This document shows positions 1 through 40,786 of a stretch of DNA of 64,000 bases, piece after piece. Position 1 is the stretch's first letter; each line of letters begins with the position of its first letter. A program made the position numbers and the translations under genes. The DNA is taken from NCBI RefSeq assembly GCF_964188315.1, contig NC_135655.1, forward strand, positions 57,412,001 through 57,476,000, read 5' to 3'. The notes under the pieces were generated by a model, which saw only the letters and a list, made by a program, of their open reading frames with translations, made no database searches and was not told the DNA's origin. This stretch comes from Podarcis muralis. Taxonomy: Eukaryota.

Positions 1-700
1 TTCAATAATAATAGTAGTAGTAGCAGTAGTGGGGTAATAATAGCAGCAACTTCGACTATAATGGGGATGGTGCTGTTGGTGGAGATGCTGGCAGCTGCCT
101 CTGCGGAGCAGGAGCCCCTCTCTCGAGCGCGCCCGGAGCTGCCCAGGCAGCAAACCTAAGGCAAGCAGCAGAGGAGACTCCGGGATCCAACGCAGCAGCA
201 GTGACAGCTCGGGAGACGGCGGCGCGGAGCAATCGGCGGCAGCAGCAGCAGCTCCAGCCTCTCTCTGCCCCGGTCGCTCGCAGGAGGAGCGTCGGCGCAG
301 CCAGGATGGGAGGTTAGATCCTAAGGGTTAGCTAGGCGCGCTCGCTTGCAGGAGAGGCATCGTCGCAGGAGCAGCATCCAGCACGCACCAGCCCACCTCT
401 CTCTCTCTCTCTCTCTGGTGCTACAGGAGGAAATCCTGCGAATGTCCTTGGGGAGCGGGAGGGGGGCGGAGGTGCCACTCTGCCGCGGGTAGCGAGCAGG
501 CATTCAGGAGCAGGCAGCCTTTGTGGGGGCAGATCTCGGCGCAGACCAACCCACCGGCGAACTACAAAGGACCCCGGAGCTGCCAATGTCCTCGGCCATC
601 GAAAGGAAAAGCCTCGAGCCCTCCGAGTAAGTGACCTCCTCTCCCTGTCCCCCCCACCACCCCCCAAGTCCCCTCCAGCTTCGCATCTCCAGAGCTAGGG
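1..700 (+). promoter_or_regulatory. GC/CpG-rich LMO2 proximal promoter / 5' UTR region
   Basis: CpG-dense stretch immediately upstream of and spanning the ATG at 586; a (CT)n tract followed by CTACAG forms an acceptor-like site at 425-426. Confidence 0.6.
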
Positions 701-33654: not shown

Positions 33655-33877
33655 AGGTAAAGGGTAAAGGGACCCCTGACCGACTCTGTGTTGTGGCCGA
33701 CTCTGGGGTTGCATTGTTCATCTCGCTTTATTGGCCGAGGGAGCCGGCGTACAGCTTCTGGGTCATGTGGCCAGCATGACTAAGCCGCTTCTGGCAAACC
33801 AGAGCAGCGCACGGAAACGCCATTTACCTTCCCGCCGGAGCGGTACCTATTTATCTGCTTGCACTCTGACATGCTTT
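33655..33877 (-). mobile_element. Sauria SINE 3' portion (interrupted by CR1)
   Basis: Reverse complement of the 3' part of the SINE at 29898 (AGGTAAAGGGTAAAGG tail ... CGGTACCTATTTATCTGCTTGCAC...GCTTT). Confidence 0.9.
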
Positions 33878-34474
33878 TAGGGCAGCAGCTGAAGAAGGAA
33901 CAAAAAGGGTTTTCTTGTGTGAGTTTCTTGTGGCTGTTTAGCTGCTCTCTCTGTGCAAAGGTCAGAGGGGGCAGGGCTTCTGTTGAGGTAGGTGATTAGC
34001 TGTGGGAGGAGCTTATCAGAGTTTTAGGGCAGCAGCTGAAGAAGGAACAAAAAGGGTTTTCTTGTGTGAGTTTCTTGTGGCTGTTTAGCTGCTCTCTCTG
34101 TGCAAAGGTCAGAGGGGGCAGGGCTTCTGTTGAGGTAGGTGATTAGCTGTGGGAGGAGCTTATCAGAGTTTTAGGGCAGCAGCTGAAGAAGGAACAAAAA
34201 GGGTTTTCTTGTGTGAGTTTCTTGTGGCTGTTTAGCTGCTCTCTCTGTGCAAAGGTCAGAGGGGGCAGGGCTTCTGTTGAGGTAGGTGATTAGCTGTGGG
34301 AGGAGCTTATCAGAGTTTTAGGGCAGCAGCTGAAGAAGGAACAAAAAGGGTTTTCTTGTGTGAGTTTCTTGTGGCTGTTTAGCTGCTCTCTCTGTGCAAA
34401 GGTCAGAGGGGGCAGGGCTTCTGTTGAGGTAGGTGATTAGCTGTGGGAGGAGCTTATCAGAGTTTTAGGGCAGC
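33875..34474 (+). repeat. Four 147-bp tandem monomers plus a partial fifth in the CR1 5' UTR
   Basis: Unit starts at 33875, 34022, 34169, 34316 and 34463; no differences seen between copies by eye. Confidence 0.95.
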
Positions 34475-34601
34475 GGCGCGCGCCTAGCGGCGCGCGCAGT
34501 TTGATCCATATTTTAGATTTAGGGGAGCTAGTCTCAAACATTTGTTGGGGGAGACCTAGATTTTTTGGGGGGGATTTATTTGTCCTGTCTCCACACTTTT
34601 A

Positions 34602-35675
34602 ATGATAGAGGACCACTGTAGTCACCCCCAACGACACGTTCTCAAGATGGAGGGTGAGGGAACAGCTGCAGTCGCCTGTGGTTCCTGCGCAATGTTTGCC
34701 ATCTTGCCAAAGGTTGCAGGCAGCTTTACCTGCAGCAATTGCATGTTGATTGCCCTCTTAAAAGACAAAGTCCAGCAACTGGAGGAACATGTAGCTACGC
34801 TCCAAAGAATTAGAGACCTGGAACTCTTCTTGGAAGCAACAGAGCACACCGTCTCCACCAAGGAAGAGACAGGGGACTCCCCTGAGAAGGTGGCTAGTTC
34901 ACCAACACAGGAGCCAGATATATGGAGAAACGTGACTCAAAGAAGTAGGAGGCCCAGGGTTCGCTCTGATTGTTTAGAAATACGCAATCGCTTTGAGGTC
35001 CTTTCCCCTACCATGGAAGACGAAGAGCAGACTCCATTTGAGGATCTCTCCCTCATTACAGTCGATCAGGTATATGAAGACGAGCAGCAAAGGCAGTCCT
35101 CAGGGAATGTCCAGGCGACCTTGGAACGGACAGCTCACAGAAGAACCCCGACCAGACCTAAGAGGAGGCGTGTGGTGGTGATAGGGGATTCCCTACTGAG
35201 GGGAACAGAAGCAGTGATCTGTGGGCCTGACAAGATGTCTCGGGAAGTGTGCTGTCTCCCCGGGGCTAAGATCCAAGATGTAACTGAACGACTGCAAGGA
35301 ATCATAAAACCCACTGACAAATACCCCTTCCTCTTGGTTCATGTGGGAACCAATGACACTGCAAGCAATAGCCTCCAGAAGATCAAAAGAGATTATGAGG
35401 CTCTGGGCAGGAAATTGAAGCAATTAAATGCACAAATTGTCATCTCATCTGTCCTCCCAGTTGAACGACGTGGCCCAGGGAGAGAGGGAAAAATAGTGGA
35501 AGTGAACAACTGGCTTCGCAAATGGTGTAAACAGGAACGGTTTGGATTCTTAGATCACGGACTGCAGTTTCTTGAAGATGGACTTCTGGCAAGCGATGGG
35601 CTGCACCTCACAACGGTTGGGAGGAATGTTTTTGCAAAAAATCTCAGAAACCTCATCAGGAGGGCTTTAAACTGA
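34602..35675 (+). CDS. CR1 ORF1p (zinc finger/leucine zipper + SGNH esterase); 357 aa, or 342 aa from ATG 34647
   Basis: CGSC-x14-CSNC followed by a heptad leucine repeat; SGNH blocks GDS, PGA, GTND and DGLH. Confidence 0.93.
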
Positions 35676-35680
35676 CTAAT

Positions 35681-38602
35681 GTGGGGGAGGGAGACAGTGC
35701 TCCTGAAGGTAGGAGTCTATCAATTGATGAAGATGATCATCCAAATGTCATAGACCGAATGGAGCAAAGAGCATGCAGACCTAGTGGTGGGAGGAGAAAA
35801 TCCTTAAATAAGAGACACGGGGGAATGATTAATGGACTTCAATGTCTGTACACTAATGCGCAAAGCATGGGAAATAAACAAGATGAGCTTGAGCTCCTGG
35901 TACAGCAAACTAAATATGACATAATAGGAATCACTGAAACCTGGTGGGATAAATCCCACGATTGGAATGTAATAATGGAGGGATACAATCTATTTCAAAG
36001 AAACAGACCAGACAAGAAAGGAGGAGGAGTGGCGTTATATGTCAGGGATGTGTATACCTGTGAAGAGATCCAAGATTTAGAACCTCAAAGCCAAAGTGAG
36101 AGCATTTGGGTGAAAATTAAGGGAGAGAAGAATAACAGTGACCTCATTGTGGGAGTTTACTATAGATCCCCAAGCCAAACGGAGGACATAGATGATGCCT
36201 TCCTGGAACAGATGGCCAAGCATGCAAAAGGAAGGGAGATAGTAGTAATGGGGGACTTCAATTACCCTGATATTTGTTGGATGTCAAACTCAGCCAAGAG
36301 CATAAGGTCAAACAGATTCCTCACTGCCCTTGCAGACAACTTCATTGTCCAGAAAGTGGGAGAAGCAACAAGAGGAACAGCCATTTTAGATCTGGTCCTA
36401 ACCAATGTTGATGACCTGGTTAGTGGGGTAGAAGTGGAAGGATCATTAGGCGCGAGTGATCATGCTCTTCTGAAGTTTACTATACAGCGGAAAGGAGCAG
36501 CCAAGCATACTAGGACTCAATTTCTCGACTTTAAGAAAGCCGACTTCATAAAGCTTAGGGAAGTGCTGGGTGAGATCCCATGGACAGTAATACTAAAAGG
36601 AAAGGGAGTTCAAGATGGCTGGGAGTTTGTTAAGAGGGAGATAGTAAAAGCACAACTTCAGGCAATACCAATGAGACGGAAACATGGAAGGTGCCTAAAG
36701 AAGCCAGGGTGGCTATCTAAAGAACTTTTAACTGAGTTAAGATTAAAAAAGGATGTGTACAAAAAATGGAAAAGGGGGGAAACCACCAAAGAGGAATTCA
36801 AACAAATAGCCAGCACGTGTAGACACAAAGTCAGAAAAGCTAAAGCACAAAATGAACTCAGGATTGCTAGAGAGGTTAAAAGCAACAAAAAAGGCTTTTA
36901 TGGGTATGTTCGTAGCAAAAGGAAGAACAAAGAAACCGTGGGGTCACTCAGAGGAGAAGATGGTGAAATGCAAACAGGGGACACAGAAAGGGCTGAACTC
37001 CTCAATGCTTTCTTTGCCTCAGTCTTCTCCGATAAAGAAAACAATGCCCGACCTGAAGAATTTGGAGCAAATGATTCAGCAGAGGAAACACAACCCAGAA
37101 TAACTAAGGAGATAGTACAAGAATACTTGGCTAGTCTAGATGTATTCAAGTCTCCAGGGCCAGATGAACTGCATCCAAGAGTATTAAAAGAACTGGCAGA
37201 TGTGATTTCAGAACCACTGGCAGTCATCTTTGAGAATTCCTGGAGAACAGGCGAAGTCCCCGCAGACTGGAGGAGGGCAAATGTTGTCCCTATTTTCAAA
37301 AAGGGGAAAAGAGAGGACCCAAATAATTACCGCCCAGTCAGTCTGACATCAATACCAGGGAAGATTCTGGAGCAGATCATTAAGCAAACAGTCTGTGAGC
37401 ACCTAGAAAGGAATGCTGTGATCACCAATAGTCAGCATGGATTTCTGAAAAATAAGTCATGTCAGACTAACCTGATCTCGTTTTTTGACAGAATTACAAG
37501 CCTGGTAGATGAAGGGAACGCAGTGGATGTAGTCTACCTTGATTTCAGCAAGGCATTTGACAAGGTGCCCCATGATATTCTTGTAAAGAAGCTGGTAAAA
37601 TGCGGTCTTGACTATGCTACCACTCAGTGGATTTGTAACTGGCTGACTGACCGAACCCAAAGGGTGCTCATCAATGGTTCCTCTTCATCCTGGAGAAGAG
37701 TGACTAGTGGGGTGCCACAGGGTTCTGTCTTGGGCCCGGTCTTATTCAACATCTTTATCAACGACTTGGATGATGGACTCAAGGGCATCCTGATCAAATT
37801 TGCAGATGACACCAAACTGGGAGGGGTGACTAACACCCCAGAGGACAGGATCACACTTCAAAACGACCTTGACAGATTAGAGAACTGGGCCAAAACAAAC
37901 AAGATGAATTTTAACAGGGAGAAATGTAAAGTATTGCACTTGCGCAAAAAAAATGAGAGGCACAAATACAAGATGGGGGACACCTGGCTTGAGAGCAGTA
38001 CATGTGAAAAGGATCTAGGAGTCTTGGTTGACCACAAACTTGACATGAGCCAACAATGTGACGCGGCAGCTAAAAAAGCCAATGCAATTCTGGGCCTCAT
38101 CAATAGGAGTATAGCATCTAGATCAAGGGAAGTAATAGTGCCACTGTATTCTGCTCTGGTCAGACCTCACCTGGAGTACTGTGTCCAGTTCTGGGCACCA
38201 CAGTTCAAGAAGGACACTGACAAACTCGAACGTATCCAGAGGAGGGCAACCAAAATGGTCAAAGGCCTGGAAACGATGCCTTATGAGGAACGGCTAAGGG
38301 AGCTGGGCATGTTTAGCCTGGAGAAGAGGAGGTTACGGGGTGATATGATAGCCATGTACAAATATATAAAAGGATGTCACATAGAGGAGGGAGAAAGGCT
38401 GTTTTCTGCTGCTCCAGAGAAGCGGACACGGAGCAATGGATCCAAACTACAAGAAAGAAGATTCCACCTAAACATTAGGAAGAACTTCCTGACAGTAAGA
38501 GCTGTTCGACAGTGGAATTTGCTGCCAAGGAGTGTGGTGGAGTCTCCTTCTTTGGAGGTCTTTAAGCAGAGGCTTGACAACCATATGTCAGGAGTGCTCT
38601 GA
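35681..38602 (+). CDS. CR1 ORF2p (apurinic-type endonuclease + reverse transcriptase), 973 aa from GTG; frame open from 35576
   Basis: EN motifs YTNAQS, GITETWW, MGDFN, LDL, SDH; RT motifs [35 protein letters not shown]; no stops or frameshifts. Confidence 0.97.
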
Positions 38603-38678
38603 TGGTGTTTCCTGCTTGGCAGGGGGTTGGACTCGATGGCCCTTGTGGTCTCTTCCAACTCTATGATTCTATGATTCT

Positions 38679-38795
38679 ATGCTTTCGAACTGCTAGGTGG
38701 GCAGGAGCAGGGACCGAGGAACGGGAGCTCACCCCGCGGGGATTCGAACCGCCGACCTTCTGATCAAGTCCTAGGCTCTGTGGTTTAACCCACAG
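38679..38795 (-). mobile_element. Sauria SINE 5' portion (interrupted by CR1)
   Basis: Resumes exactly where the left part stops: GCTTTCGAACTGCTAGG...GGATTCGAACC...TTTAACCCACAG. Confidence 0.9.
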
Positions 38796-38949
38796 TCTAA
38801 TTACTCTTAATTCTCAAAGGCCTTTAAGTTGGAAAAAGTCCTTTCCTCTGCCTGTCCTGAATCGTCTTAACATTCAGCTGGCCATGAGTTCTAGCCTTAG
38901 GAGGGAGAAAACCTTTTTTCTGTATCGACTTCCTTCGCACTTTTAAGCA

Positions 38950-39950
38950 AATTAAAACCCCACCGTGCTGCCTCTCCCTCGCCTTTTCCCTGAACTAAAA
39001 AGTCCCCAATGCTGCAGCCTTCCTCAAAGGGGAGCCGCTCCATCCCCTTGTTGGCTCGGGTGGCCTTTCTCCGCTCCCCAACTCGACAATATCCTTTTTG
39101 AGGGGAGGCAACAATGCCTGCGGTTTTATTCCCAAGCTCAATTTGCCACCCAGACGACGACGACGACGACCCCCTCAAGGCCTCGCTCCAGGCCGAGCCC
39201 GCTCCGCCCCGCCCTCTTGTCGCTTTCCCCTCTCGCTCGCTCCCATCATTGAAACACTTATATTTCGCTGCTTCGGCCGCTCTCCGCATTGCCGCAGACC
39301 AGCCTCGCCGCGCGGGAGGCGGAGCGTCCTGGTGCCCGAGAAGAAGCGGCGCGAGGGAAACCGGCGGGCCAGGATTTTGCTGCAGAGGGATTGCGGCGGA
39401 GCGTCGAGCTGCGGGCAGGAGGGTGAGCGGCGGGCCGGGCACTTGGCGCGCGAAGGGCTGGTTTCGAGGGCTTGCCCTCCGTTTCCCCCCTCAGGATTCG
39501 TCATTTAATCGCTTTAATCCCGCTTGGAAGGTGGGGAAGGGATACCCCCAGAGCAGGCGGGGCAACTCGCTGGGTCTCCGGAGAGGATAGGGATAGGGGC
39601 GAAATGAGCCTAGACTAAGCAGGTTGCATTTAGGGGTTAATTTTGCGGGGAAGGGTAGGAGACCAGGGAGCAGAAAGCATCCTCTCCAACTAGGGTTGGG
39701 AGAGACCTCCCTTCCCCAAAGGCTGGGGAACTGCTGCCGGCCAGAGTAGGCAATACTGATCTAGATGGGCGGGGTAAGGCAGCTTCGATTGCTCTGCCGG
39801 GCGGAGTGCCTGGTAAATCGCGGTGGTAGGTGGAGGGTCGGAATTCGCAACGGGATATATGGTGCGTGTGGCGGGCGGGCGGGGGGCGTTGGGTGTGCAT
39901 CGACTACATTGGGCTCCCGTACTTTCTGCTGTGTCCGTTCAGAAAAGGGG
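38950..39950 (+). promoter_or_regulatory. CpG island; probable promoter and non-coding exon 1 of the first CD59-like gene
   Basis: CpG-dense, GC boxes (CCGCCCCGCCC at about 39205), donor-like GG|GTGAGC at 39422/39423. Link to the coding exon at 42888 is inferred. Confidence 0.6.
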
Positions 39951-40786
39951 ATTCCATTCAGTGGGTGCAGCTTTCCTAACCTTTGCCTCCCCATTGGCAT
40001 GAGAAGGCGACCCTACCAAACAGCCCCGCCCCAAAGCGCCCTTCCTGTCGTCCGAGACCGTCCTAACTAGGGTCTGTCCTCTTGCTGCTTTCTGCGGGTC
40101 TCAAAGAGAATTATCTCGGGATCGTGGAAGGAGCACGTATCTAAGACTGCAGAGGCAGTGCTGAGAGATAAAAGATGCTCTGCCTCCATCAAACCCCTGG
40201 TTCTGGTCCCCTTTCCCATGATCTAAGGTCACCTGATACATTGCTGCTCCCCAATAATTCTAGCTTTGGTAACGTGCCAAATTAGGATCTTGTATGTCTT
40301 TAAATACCCCCTCTTCTCTGTTTAGTATGGTGGTGCTGTATAGTGATAGGAACTGCAGGGAGCTGGCCAAAGTTAATCAAGGCACTTCATGTTTTCTTCC
40401 TGTTAACTCATTGCTTTTCCTAGTGTGAAAGAGTGGGTCGTTTTCTCTGAGAACATAAAATATCACTGAAACATAAAGTAATGGAATCTCCTAGAGCCAT
40501 TGCTCTTCGTGAGCCAAACTGTGTGTATGTTTTTAGCATGTTAGAAGGCAGAATTCCCAGCCCAAAATTTTGGTGTTCCAAGTGGGAGTTGGCAGTAGTC
40601 TGTAAAATTAGTTTAAAATAACAACAACAAGCCTGCAGCTGTATCCACCCACATGGCATGTTTAAGCTGAGGACTTTGGCTGAGAGGGTATGTGTGATAT
40701 GTTACAGCCCTGCTATATAGTCCACTTTATTTTAGAAAATATAGTACAAATTTTATACTATTCAAAATTCAATACTGTATTCACAG

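Follow-up and report, generated by a model that had tools for sequence, protein, structure and literature searches.

A conserved slippery heptamer at the end of ORF1 points to probable programmed −1 frameshifting in CR1 retrotransposons of jawed vertebrates

How the second open reading frame of a LINE is translated is treated as an open question in two reviews (PMC3894237, PMC3708506), and CR1 elements dominate the retrotransposons of most non-mammalian vertebrates, according to PMC13343379. The question is raised here by a CR1 copy in a 64 000-nucleotide stretch of Podarcis muralis DNA (the window; all features given below lie on its + strand). An earlier note, made from the sequence of the window, had proposed that ORF1 and ORF2 of this copy are fused by programmed −1 ribosomal frameshifting.

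The element (33878..38682) is a full-length CR1 LINE whose family is very young, as judged from its ends, target duplication and copy number. Its 5′ end at 33875–33876 is common to 20 of 42 other copies, a target-duplication-like 7-nt repeat flanks both ends, and a 37-nt stretch of the ORF1–ORF2 junction has 778 exact copies in its own genome (Podarcis muralis). The 5′ UTR is a tandem array (33875..34474; 147 bp × 4.1, units 100% identical). ORF1 (34647..35675) runs from ATG 34647 to TGA 35673–35675 and encodes 342 aa with a CxxC–CxxC zinc finger and an SGNH/GDSL esterase (Pfam PF13472; PDB 4C1B, a LINE ORF1 esterase, E 6e-23), ending in ...RRALN; in the ORF1 alignment Cys 11, 14, 29 and 32 are conserved and L341 and N342 are invariant. 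The ORF2 core (35843..38602) consists of an APE endonuclease, from CLYTNA onwards, and a reverse transcriptase (Pfam PF03372, PF14529, PF00078); it is most similar to elements of reptiles and birds, and a comparison of the endonuclease with PDB sequences gave no real match. The 3′ UTR (38603..38682) ends in ATTCTATG repeats (38661–38682), which we take to be the motif typical of CR1. Canonical vertebrate CR1 elements carry 8-nt repeats at the 3′ end in place of poly(A), and the window element fits this type in its zinc finger/esterase ORF1, its APE–RT ORF2 and its 8-nt 3′ repeats; assignment to the CR1 clade was made from homology and architecture.

The final codons of ORF1 are GCT TTA AAC TGA, so that the heptamer T_TTA_AAC (35666..35672) is in ORF1 phase and abuts the ORF1 stop. 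The ORF2 frame is −1 relative to ORF1 and has no stops from 35576 to 38599, the stop being at 38600–38602; both this arrangement and the phase of the heptamer had been claimed before and were confirmed on the sequence. The first ATG in the ORF2 frame is at 35759, with a GTG at 35681 and a CTG at 35672 overlapping the ORF1 stop, and a conceptual fusion from ATG 34647 would comprise 342 + 976 = 1318 aa. Three heptamers are in phase within ORF1, namely the terminal one, A_AAA_AAT (35636–35642) and G_GGA_AAA (35486). Heptamers of the X_XXY_YYZ type occupy 0.63% of window positions, and three per 342 codons is chance level. A_AAA_AAT, to which the earlier note had also drawn attention, is in phase but incidental: base 35636 matches the window in 0% of 52 older copies and is polymorphic, being C in 26/42, 26/39, 16/44 and 13/33 RNA reads of four runs. 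The terminal heptamer by itself has a chance prior of about 1%, and it is conservation, as read from aligned sequences, that makes the case real.

The comparison covered 17 junctions of diverged CR1 lineages (36–86% pairwise identity), with metagenome junctions recruited by an anchor that excluded the last three ORF1 residues; the junctions share descent and the counts therefore overstate their independence. TTTAAAC was present as nucleotides in 16/17 junctions, and the remaining one reads T_TTA_ACC. The terminal codons were Ala GCT (15/15), Leu TTA (17/17) and Asn AAC (16/16), and T always precedes TTA, even where the residue is Cys or Ser; the ORF1 stop varies by lineage (TGA, TAG or TAA). 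As controls, the commonest codon at eight other conserved Leu columns accounted for only 4–11 of 14–16 sequences, and another conserved Asn column split 8/7 between codons; as a counter-control, a two-codon Phe site at 35541 was likewise invariant (14/14). A synonymous-degenerate pattern gave 98 matches in the element's own genome (control 23), and among the 64 matches confirmed as CR1 the heptamer was spelled TTTAAAC in 54 and TTTAAAT in five. The codon control and the own-genome copies both indicate that the in-phase heptamer has been kept across CR1 lineages at synonymous positions, as the frameshift proposal had implied, and protein constraint is unable to fix these synonymous bases. Bird-like CR1s read ...FKL..GEGD in the −1 frame, in line with what the earlier note had stated of bird CR1s.

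Among ORF1 homologues with the DGxH motif, 71/108 end in xLN, and the codon for x can end in T in 68 of these 71. Three homologues ending in ELN are compatible with G_UUA_AAC, and the shift site of equine arteritis virus begins with G_UU(A) (PMC5009743). A published consensus library was searched over the leading 400 letters of every row, the consensuses visibly lacking some bases; by eye, 18/23 heptamer-plus-stop matches lay at ORF1 ends, and when the GLH motif further upstream served as anchor, the heptamer was present in 7/7 CR1 rows with the ORF1 end in view. The same site occurs in published consensuses that bear the labels shark, coelacanth, crocodilian and lizard. Alternative heptamer spellings gave no ORF1-end match among the library matches listed, and G_GGA_AAC and A_AAA_AAC gave none; either of the latter may have been swapped in in distant relatives whose ORF1 ends in QGN or SKN. 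The searched part of the Suh 2014 supplement gave 3′-end matches only, own-genome protein searches with divergent queries recovered only the young family, and the viral contigs and prokaryote genomes searched contained no relatives.

The shift site is connected to the endonuclease by a variable linker (35672..35842; 57 codons in the −1 frame, with ATGs at 35759 and 35825). Linkers of seven different lengths (37, 41, 51, 57–61, 76, 88 and 93 codons) preserve this frame. The −1 frame is open through to the endonuclease in the window, as had been described, and in 12 of the 13 junctions for which both ends were available; in the other, a stop immediately precedes the endonuclease motif. Eight linkers that lack an early ATG contain no stops (shuffle P 0.01–0.52 each). 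The −1 frame is closed one to two codons before the heptamer in 7/17 junctions, which excludes upstream initiation in those. Protein-like constraint ahead of the first ATG, for which the earlier note had proposed a test, was weakly seen and only among bird-like copies: their linkers gave a pN/pS of 0.48, a value that includes pairs with ATG-bearing copies, and the window against L206 (the lineage chosen as an intact representative) gave a saturated 0.84. A weak search among longer proteins for a natural in-frame ORF1–ORF2 fusion returned none (one unrelated chimera).

Downstream of the heptamer, a spacer of fixed length (35673..35682; 10 nt, the ORF1 stop TGA plus seven variable bases) leads to a G-rich motif, GGGGGAGGG (35683..35691). 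Numbered from the first base after the heptamer, GGGGG begins at +11 in 15/15 junctions with at least 20 bases available; the codon at +12..14 is GGG in 15/15, and the codon at +9..11 ends in G in 15/15 over six amino acids. The G-run starts exactly at +11 in 6/18 rows of the consensus library, lies nearby in most others and is missing in at least two. This G-run at a fixed distance is a new observation and constitutes a candidate, putative frameshift stimulator. The weak local hairpins suggested earlier did not hold up (fold z = +0.7 against shuffles; not shared among junctions). No conserved stem–loop or pseudoknot was found 3′ of the heptamer, as judged from secondary-structure folding (z −2.1 to +1.4 over 15 junctions) and, for the pseudoknot, from a scan of the full element, in which no C-rich stretch further down could pair with the G-run; nor was there a conserved long-range pairing partner among the junctions or a match in Rfam. 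Two candidate structures were rejected: long-range pairing, for which the best partners often lay 600–700 nt upstream in Pro/Ser-rich ORF1 and at non-homologous places, and a G-quadruplex, the two-tier motif of which occurs in 8/15 junctions, the window not among them, and which ViennaRNA predicts in 4/15.

On this comparative evidence it is likely that ORF2 of this CR1 and of its jawed-vertebrate relatives is made as an ORF1–ORF2 fusion by programmed −1 frameshifting; the interpretation in the earlier note is supported, and the frameshift itself is what we infer. Most ribosomes would stop at the end of ORF1 and yield a free 342-aa zinc-finger/esterase protein. A minority would slip, the Leu and Asn tRNAs moving from UUA and AAC to UUU and AAA, and would read on through the linker into the two enzyme domains, endonuclease and reverse transcriptase, for a total of 1318 aa in this element; slippage would set a high ORF1p:ORF2p ratio in gag-pol fashion. 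U_UUA_AAC is among the shiftiest sites for mammalian ribosomes (PMC5009743). Pausing of the ribosome would be due to the G-run at +11, protein-bound more probably than folded and perhaps assisted by the stop codon; this is the weakest step. A bolder version, possible though doubtful, is that since before the shark/bony-vertebrate split a host G-run-binding protein, or ORF1p, has switched ORF2 on by sitting on GGGGG, 11 nt past U_UUA_AAC; if true, this protein-stimulated switch would be a control point on retrotransposition for the cell or the element, and the first outside RNA viruses.

The main rival explanation, which we consider rather unlikely, is termination–reinitiation: ribosomes would resume translation in the −1 frame, either from an ATG close by or with no ATG at all, ORF2 would be a separate protein, and the heptamer-like bases and the G-run would form a termination or ribosome-retention signal. 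Precedents are UAAUG coupling in SART1 (PMC3894237, PMC3708506) and the AUG-independent ORF2 start proposed for mammalian L1 (PMC5009743). A −1-frame ATG is present at +6 in 4/15 junctions and at +3 (TAATG) in 1/15, TAATG occurs in three of 18 library rows, all shark-labelled, and one ORF2 homologue begins M-G-V-G-D, which would place its ATG at about +9. The position of the ATG varies between lineages, however; 10/15 junctions have no ATG within 20 nt, the window has neither the +3 nor the +6 ATG, and the +6 codon is elsewhere TCG, TGG, GAC, GAA, CTT, CCT or AAT. That ORF2 has no ATG of its own at its start, as had been noted for the window, extends to the absence of any conserved ORF2 ATG: +3 and +6 account for 5/15 junctions, and 35759 and 35825 vary among subfamilies, the former codon being ACT in older subfamilies and the latter ATG in 13/25 copies of one older group and ACA in ten, ATG in six and ACG in two of 27 in the other. 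An upstream UGGGA motif is a feature of TURBS-type reinitiation; UGGGA was found within 100 nt in 8/17 junctions (−30 to −76), mostly as D-G codons and at no conserved place. Reinitiation also leaves unexplained the fixation of the heptamer in ORF1 phase and the −1 frame of the ATG-less lineages; in ATG-bearing ones it may provide an additional route. Initiation of ORF2 at its own ATG (35825 or 35759), whether through internal ribosome entry or on a shorter RNA made from an internal promoter with TTTAAA as a TATA-like box, is very unlikely. Many database ORF2 models do begin at linker ATGs (35759 and 35825 for the window family), the ATG at 35825 is common to one older subfamily, as given above, and PMC3894237 discusses IRES-driven translation of non-LTR elements, but L048, L056 and L206 have no ATG ahead of the first endonuclease motif, the Anolis and Pelodiscus ORF2 models begin inside the endonuclease domain, and an internal promoter should be indifferent to codon phase and to the length of the linker modulo 3.

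RNA was represented by 2,764 reads from four raw runs of the same species label, derived from many copies and both strands. Bulk read depth was even over the junction with no pile-up of starts, which argues against an internal promoter. One single-cell run has tag-like loose read ends at 35682 and 35684, which would favour one, but such ends recur at 34836, 34916, 34945 and 35812, a pattern consistent with strand invasion during template switching. Lower still in our estimate stands the possibility that the bases are fixed by another role of the RNA (packaging, ORF1p binding or stability) or by the xLN end of the protein, the −1 frame being inherited and functionless; L341 and N342 are indeed invariant and a fold-less G-run could be any protein-binding site, but synonymous bases are fixed, the alignment with the solved L2 esterase reaches no further than residue 338 and the frame is maintained over all seven linker lengths. 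It is barely credible that the frames are joined in RNA, by splicing or by polymerase slippage adding a base in the T/A run. TTTAAA does contain short homopolymers, and gene models P0040 and P0263 bridge ORF1 and ORF2 by an intron, but the reads contained no splice joint and no insertion or other indel at the heptamer at a 2% threshold, which a rare form could escape, and the stop is TAG, TAA or TGA, so that there is no fixed AG acceptor.

Programmed −1 frameshifting in CR1 would answer the question of how such elements make their copying enzyme. If the fusion is true, the protein model changes to an esterase joined with an endonuclease–RT, database ORF2 starts would be wrong or truncated, and CR1 retrotransposition assays would need the junction intact. 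The junction cassette measures about 30 nt, and the family that carries it has hundreds of near-identical copies. If the G-run does stimulate frameshifting without any RNA structure, it would represent a recoding signal of a new kind.

Literature searches returned no report of frameshifting in CR1, although Haas 1997, Kajikawa 1997, Kapitonov and Jurka 2003, Kojima 2005 and Alisch 2006 may hold one. Canonical vertebrate CR1 elements with ORF1 of type IVB share the zinc finger–esterase and APE–RT layout (PMC4120745, PMC13343379); the word 'frameshift' occurs 0 times in the main texts of these two papers and the junction is undiscussed there. SART1 and mammalian L1 likewise have a bicistronic LINE RNA and need little ORF2p (PMC3894237, PMC3708506, PMC5009743), but make a separate ORF2p by reinitiation, whereas CR1 has no conserved stop–start. 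TRE5-A and TRE3-A of Dictyostelium are APE-type LINEs of a distant clade that are said to need a −1 frameshift for ORF2; the figure legend of the review that says so (PMC5911963) gives no slippery site or stimulator. Retroviral and LTR gag-pol (Rous sarcoma/avian leukosis virus) is alike in its structural ORF with a terminal X_XXY_YYZ, its enzyme ORF in the −1 frame and its minor fusion product (PMC5009743, PMC11835228); CR1 differs in being a non-LTR LINE with no protease and no conserved downstream stem–loop or pseudoknot. In PRRSV, nsp1beta/PCBP acts through a short motif that is unstructured and lies 11 nt 3′ of the shift site (PMC5009743), as the CR1 G-run begins at +11; the motif is C-rich there and G-rich in CR1 and the shift site is different, so that the likeness is in geometry only. 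A 3′ pseudoknot, of which none was found at CR1 junctions, is used at the coronavirus IBV site (PMC5009743) and at that of equine arteritis virus; the IBV heptamer, U_UUA_AAC, is identical to that of CR1, and the G_UUA_AAC of equine arteritis virus would suit the ELN-ending CR1 proteins (PMC5009743).

The window carries an ordinary full-length CR1 LINE (window sequence, about 33878-38682, forward strand). Domain and homology comparison showed ORF1 (342 aa, ATG 34647, forward strand) to contain a CxxC-CxxC finger and an SGNH esterase; ORF2 comprises endonuclease and reverse transcriptase domains, and the nearest named proteins were from a wall lizard (94-100% identity). In the 5' UTR (33875-34474), 4.1 perfect tandem copies of a 147-bp unit form an array that resembles mouse L1 monomer promoters, and the element is followed by a GC-rich island (38897-40070), probably a host gene promoter. 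ORF1 ends GCT TTA AAC TGA. The earlier reading of this junction was reproduced from the window sequence: T_TTA_AAC (35666-35672) lies in ORF1 phase, ORF2 is in the -1 frame, open from 35576 with its first ATG at 35759, and the predicted ORF1-ORF2 fusion was computed as 1318 aa. Two further proposals of the earlier note were abandoned. The second heptamer at 35636 is in phase, yet was missing from 52 older copies and changed in 36-67% of RNA reads, and is incidental; ORF1 holds three in-phase canonical heptamers (35486, 35636 and 35666), about the chance level. The proposed hairpins folded no better than shuffles.

Programmed -1 frameshifting at U_UUA_AAC is probably the source of a minor ORF1-ORF2 fusion: most ribosomes would terminate at the ORF1 stop to give ORF1p, a minority would slip by -1 at the heptamer into ORF2, and a G-run 3' of it may take part in the shift.

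The junction is not one copy's mutation, since 30 of 30 retrieved copies were identical across 35620-35780 and the P. muralis assembly contained 778 exact matches to a 37-nt junction stretch and 790 to a 33-nt version with the heptamer blanked. Some 780-900 nearly identical copies reach across the junction, which lies 4 kb from the 3' end. They amount to a very large and recent expansion of long CR1 insertions, and several of them sit in inverted pairs close to contig starts (C1 14.6/23.2 kb, 257/266 kb and 323/332 kb).

The DGxH motif was found in 108 of 213 ORF1-like proteins, and in 71 of these the C-terminus is xLN, reached 24-29 residues past the Asp; named lizard, snake, turtle, bird and frog proteins are among the 71. 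On visual inspection the other 37 were distant relatives or gene models that are truncated or chimeric. Residue x was A, T, Y, G, H, V, S or C in 68 of the 71 and Glu in three, and only Glu is unable to supply the first T of the heptamer. These ELN ends (P0006, P0014 and P0089) make U_UUA_AAC impossible and G_UUA_AAC or A_UUA_AAC possible. Distant relatives end in QGN or SKN (P0160, P0182, P0199, P0206 and P0194), which may be encoded by G_GGA_AAC and A_AAA_AAC heptamers, and in P0196 and P0205 a longer tail precedes the terminal LN.

Host-derived contigs in metagenomes were searched with an anchor that excluded the last three ORF1 residues. The ORF1 end was visible in 14 of 59 loci, reading T_TTA_AAC in 13 and T_TTA_ACC in one; two of the 14 were decayed copies with a mutated stop, and the best matches of these ORF1s were bird or turtle CR1 proteins. 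The P. muralis assembly was searched for R-A-L-N-stop with synonymous places free and TGA excluded to avoid the young family, giving 98 matches (control, 23). Verification by tblastn assigned 64 to CR1 (54 TTTAAAC, five TTTAAAT, five others), defining two older subfamilies with stops TAG and TAA; the 34 without CR1 confirmation had scattered spellings (four TTTAAAC). A synonymous control comprised 17 junctions (the window, two older P. muralis copies and the 14 metagenome loci; 36-86% pairwise identity). The heptamer was kept across CR1 lineages, as the earlier note had suggested for birds: the codons before the stop were GCT in 15/15, TTA in 17/17 and AAC in 16/16, the expectation for GCT-TTA-AAC from the element's own codon use being ∼1.4% per independent lineage (19/70 × 15/121 × 25/58). 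At eight other conserved Leu columns the commonest codon reached only 4-11 of 14-16, and another Asn column split 8/7; one two-codon Phe column was likewise invariant. An unrelated constraint on these bases fits worse than frameshifting and is very improbable.

In the first 400 letters per row of a consensus library (PMC13343379, Supplementary Table 2), a search for heptamer plus stop, circular by design, gave 23 matches, 18 of them at ORF1 ends by eye, with row codes interpreted as alligator, crocodile, bearded dragon, bullfrog, coelacanth, bowfin, elephant shark, sharks, rays and a teleost. With an upstream GLH-codon anchor, the heptamer was present in 7/7 CR1 rows with a visible end in those letters; one further row ends early. 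In the AldAff_Crack-2 row the end of ORF1, EEYLN, is esterase-like and carries the identical heptamer, although the row is filed as Crack, for which PMC13343379 reports no ORF1 in vertebrates. The junction feature is real and deeply conserved.

Of the 13 junctions for which both ends were available, 12 have the endonuclease motif in the -1 frame, four loci being too short for this count; locus L062 is frameshifted, and L035 has a stop directly before the motif. Linkers measured 37, 41, 51, 57, 61, 76, 88 and 93 codons. Among 31 old P. muralis copies with the motif the commonest distance was 170 nt, in frame as in the window, and because of decay only 12 are still in frame. Seven of the 17 junctions have the -1 frame closed 1-2 codons 5' of the heptamer, so that the F-K-L codons there can be reached only via a shift. 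Termination at the ORF1 stop followed by reinitiation is the main rival, although an unlikely one. In its favour, and counting against frameshifting, an in-frame ATG occurs at +3 or +6 in 5/15 junctions, and reinitiation may provide an additional path to ORF2 wherever the stop is followed by an ATG. Conversely, the absence of a conserved ORF2 start was borne out: older subfamilies read ACT at ATG 35759 and a mixture of codons at ATG 35825. L048, L056 and L206 have no ATG ahead of the first endonuclease motif, and starting at the next Met would lose that motif, whose Asn belongs to the active site of APE endonucleases. In older copies the codon six before this motif, CLYTNA (35825 in the window; loci L132-L229), is ATG, ACA or ACG, as would be expected if an ACG had undergone CpG decay. 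Database ORF2 proteins P0241 (Anolis), P0256 (Pelodiscus) and P0267 begin with MGNKQ, a site within the endonuclease domain, suggesting that no in-frame ATG precedes the domain.

Reads on 34480-36650 were counted in four raw RNA runs with the same species label. The 2,764 reads gave even depth across the junction; they came from both strands and many copies and are not proof of expression from the element's promoter. No joints and no heptamer insertion or deletion were found among them at a 2% threshold, and no heptamer substitution among the 40 best-supported substitutions. These reads speak against either splicing or polymerase slippage being the principal route, and joining of the frames at the RNA level, a worse fit than frameshifting, is extremely unlikely. 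Internal initiation or an internal promoter also fits less well than frameshifting and is improbable. In run X22, tag-like loose read ends occurred at 35682-35684 at the G-run (7 and 10 reads); they are more likely template-switch artefacts than a true 5' end.

Passages of PMC3894237 and PMC3708506 treat LINE ORF2 translation as an open question, with coupling used by SART1; a figure legend states that TRE5-A and TRE3-A 'require a -1 frameshift' (PMC5911963), and a +1 shift or readthrough is proposed for Paramecium LINEs in a passage of PMC5405496. No CR1 junction mechanism was found in passages of PMC4120745, PMC11303007, PMC2734521, PMC4255032 and PMC11835228. No report of CR1 frameshifting was found in the literature searched; primary CR1/LINE papers may hold an earlier mention.

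The heptamer is followed by the stop, seven variable bases and GGGGG at +11 in 15/15 junctions with enough DNA. The G-run is a nucleotide motif, because its Gly codon is GGG in 15/15 and the preceding codon ends in G across six residues. Within the library letters covered, where consensuses have dropped bases, it lay exactly at +11 in 6/18 rows, no more than a few bases away in most others, and was absent in at least two. No common fold, G-quadruplex or long-range partner for the G-run was found among the junctions, and Rfam gave no match. The best pairing partner often lay in a C-rich ORF1 stretch 600-700 nt upstream, at non-homologous places in several lineages. As judged from the aligned junctions, a G-run at fixed distance appears to stand in place of the usual RNA structure. 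In PRRSV a protein-bound CCCANCUCC motif lies 11 nt 3' of the shift site (PMC5009743, in the first 300,000 of 449,034 characters of which CR1 has no mention); the CR1 G-run is like this motif in geometry and in nothing further.
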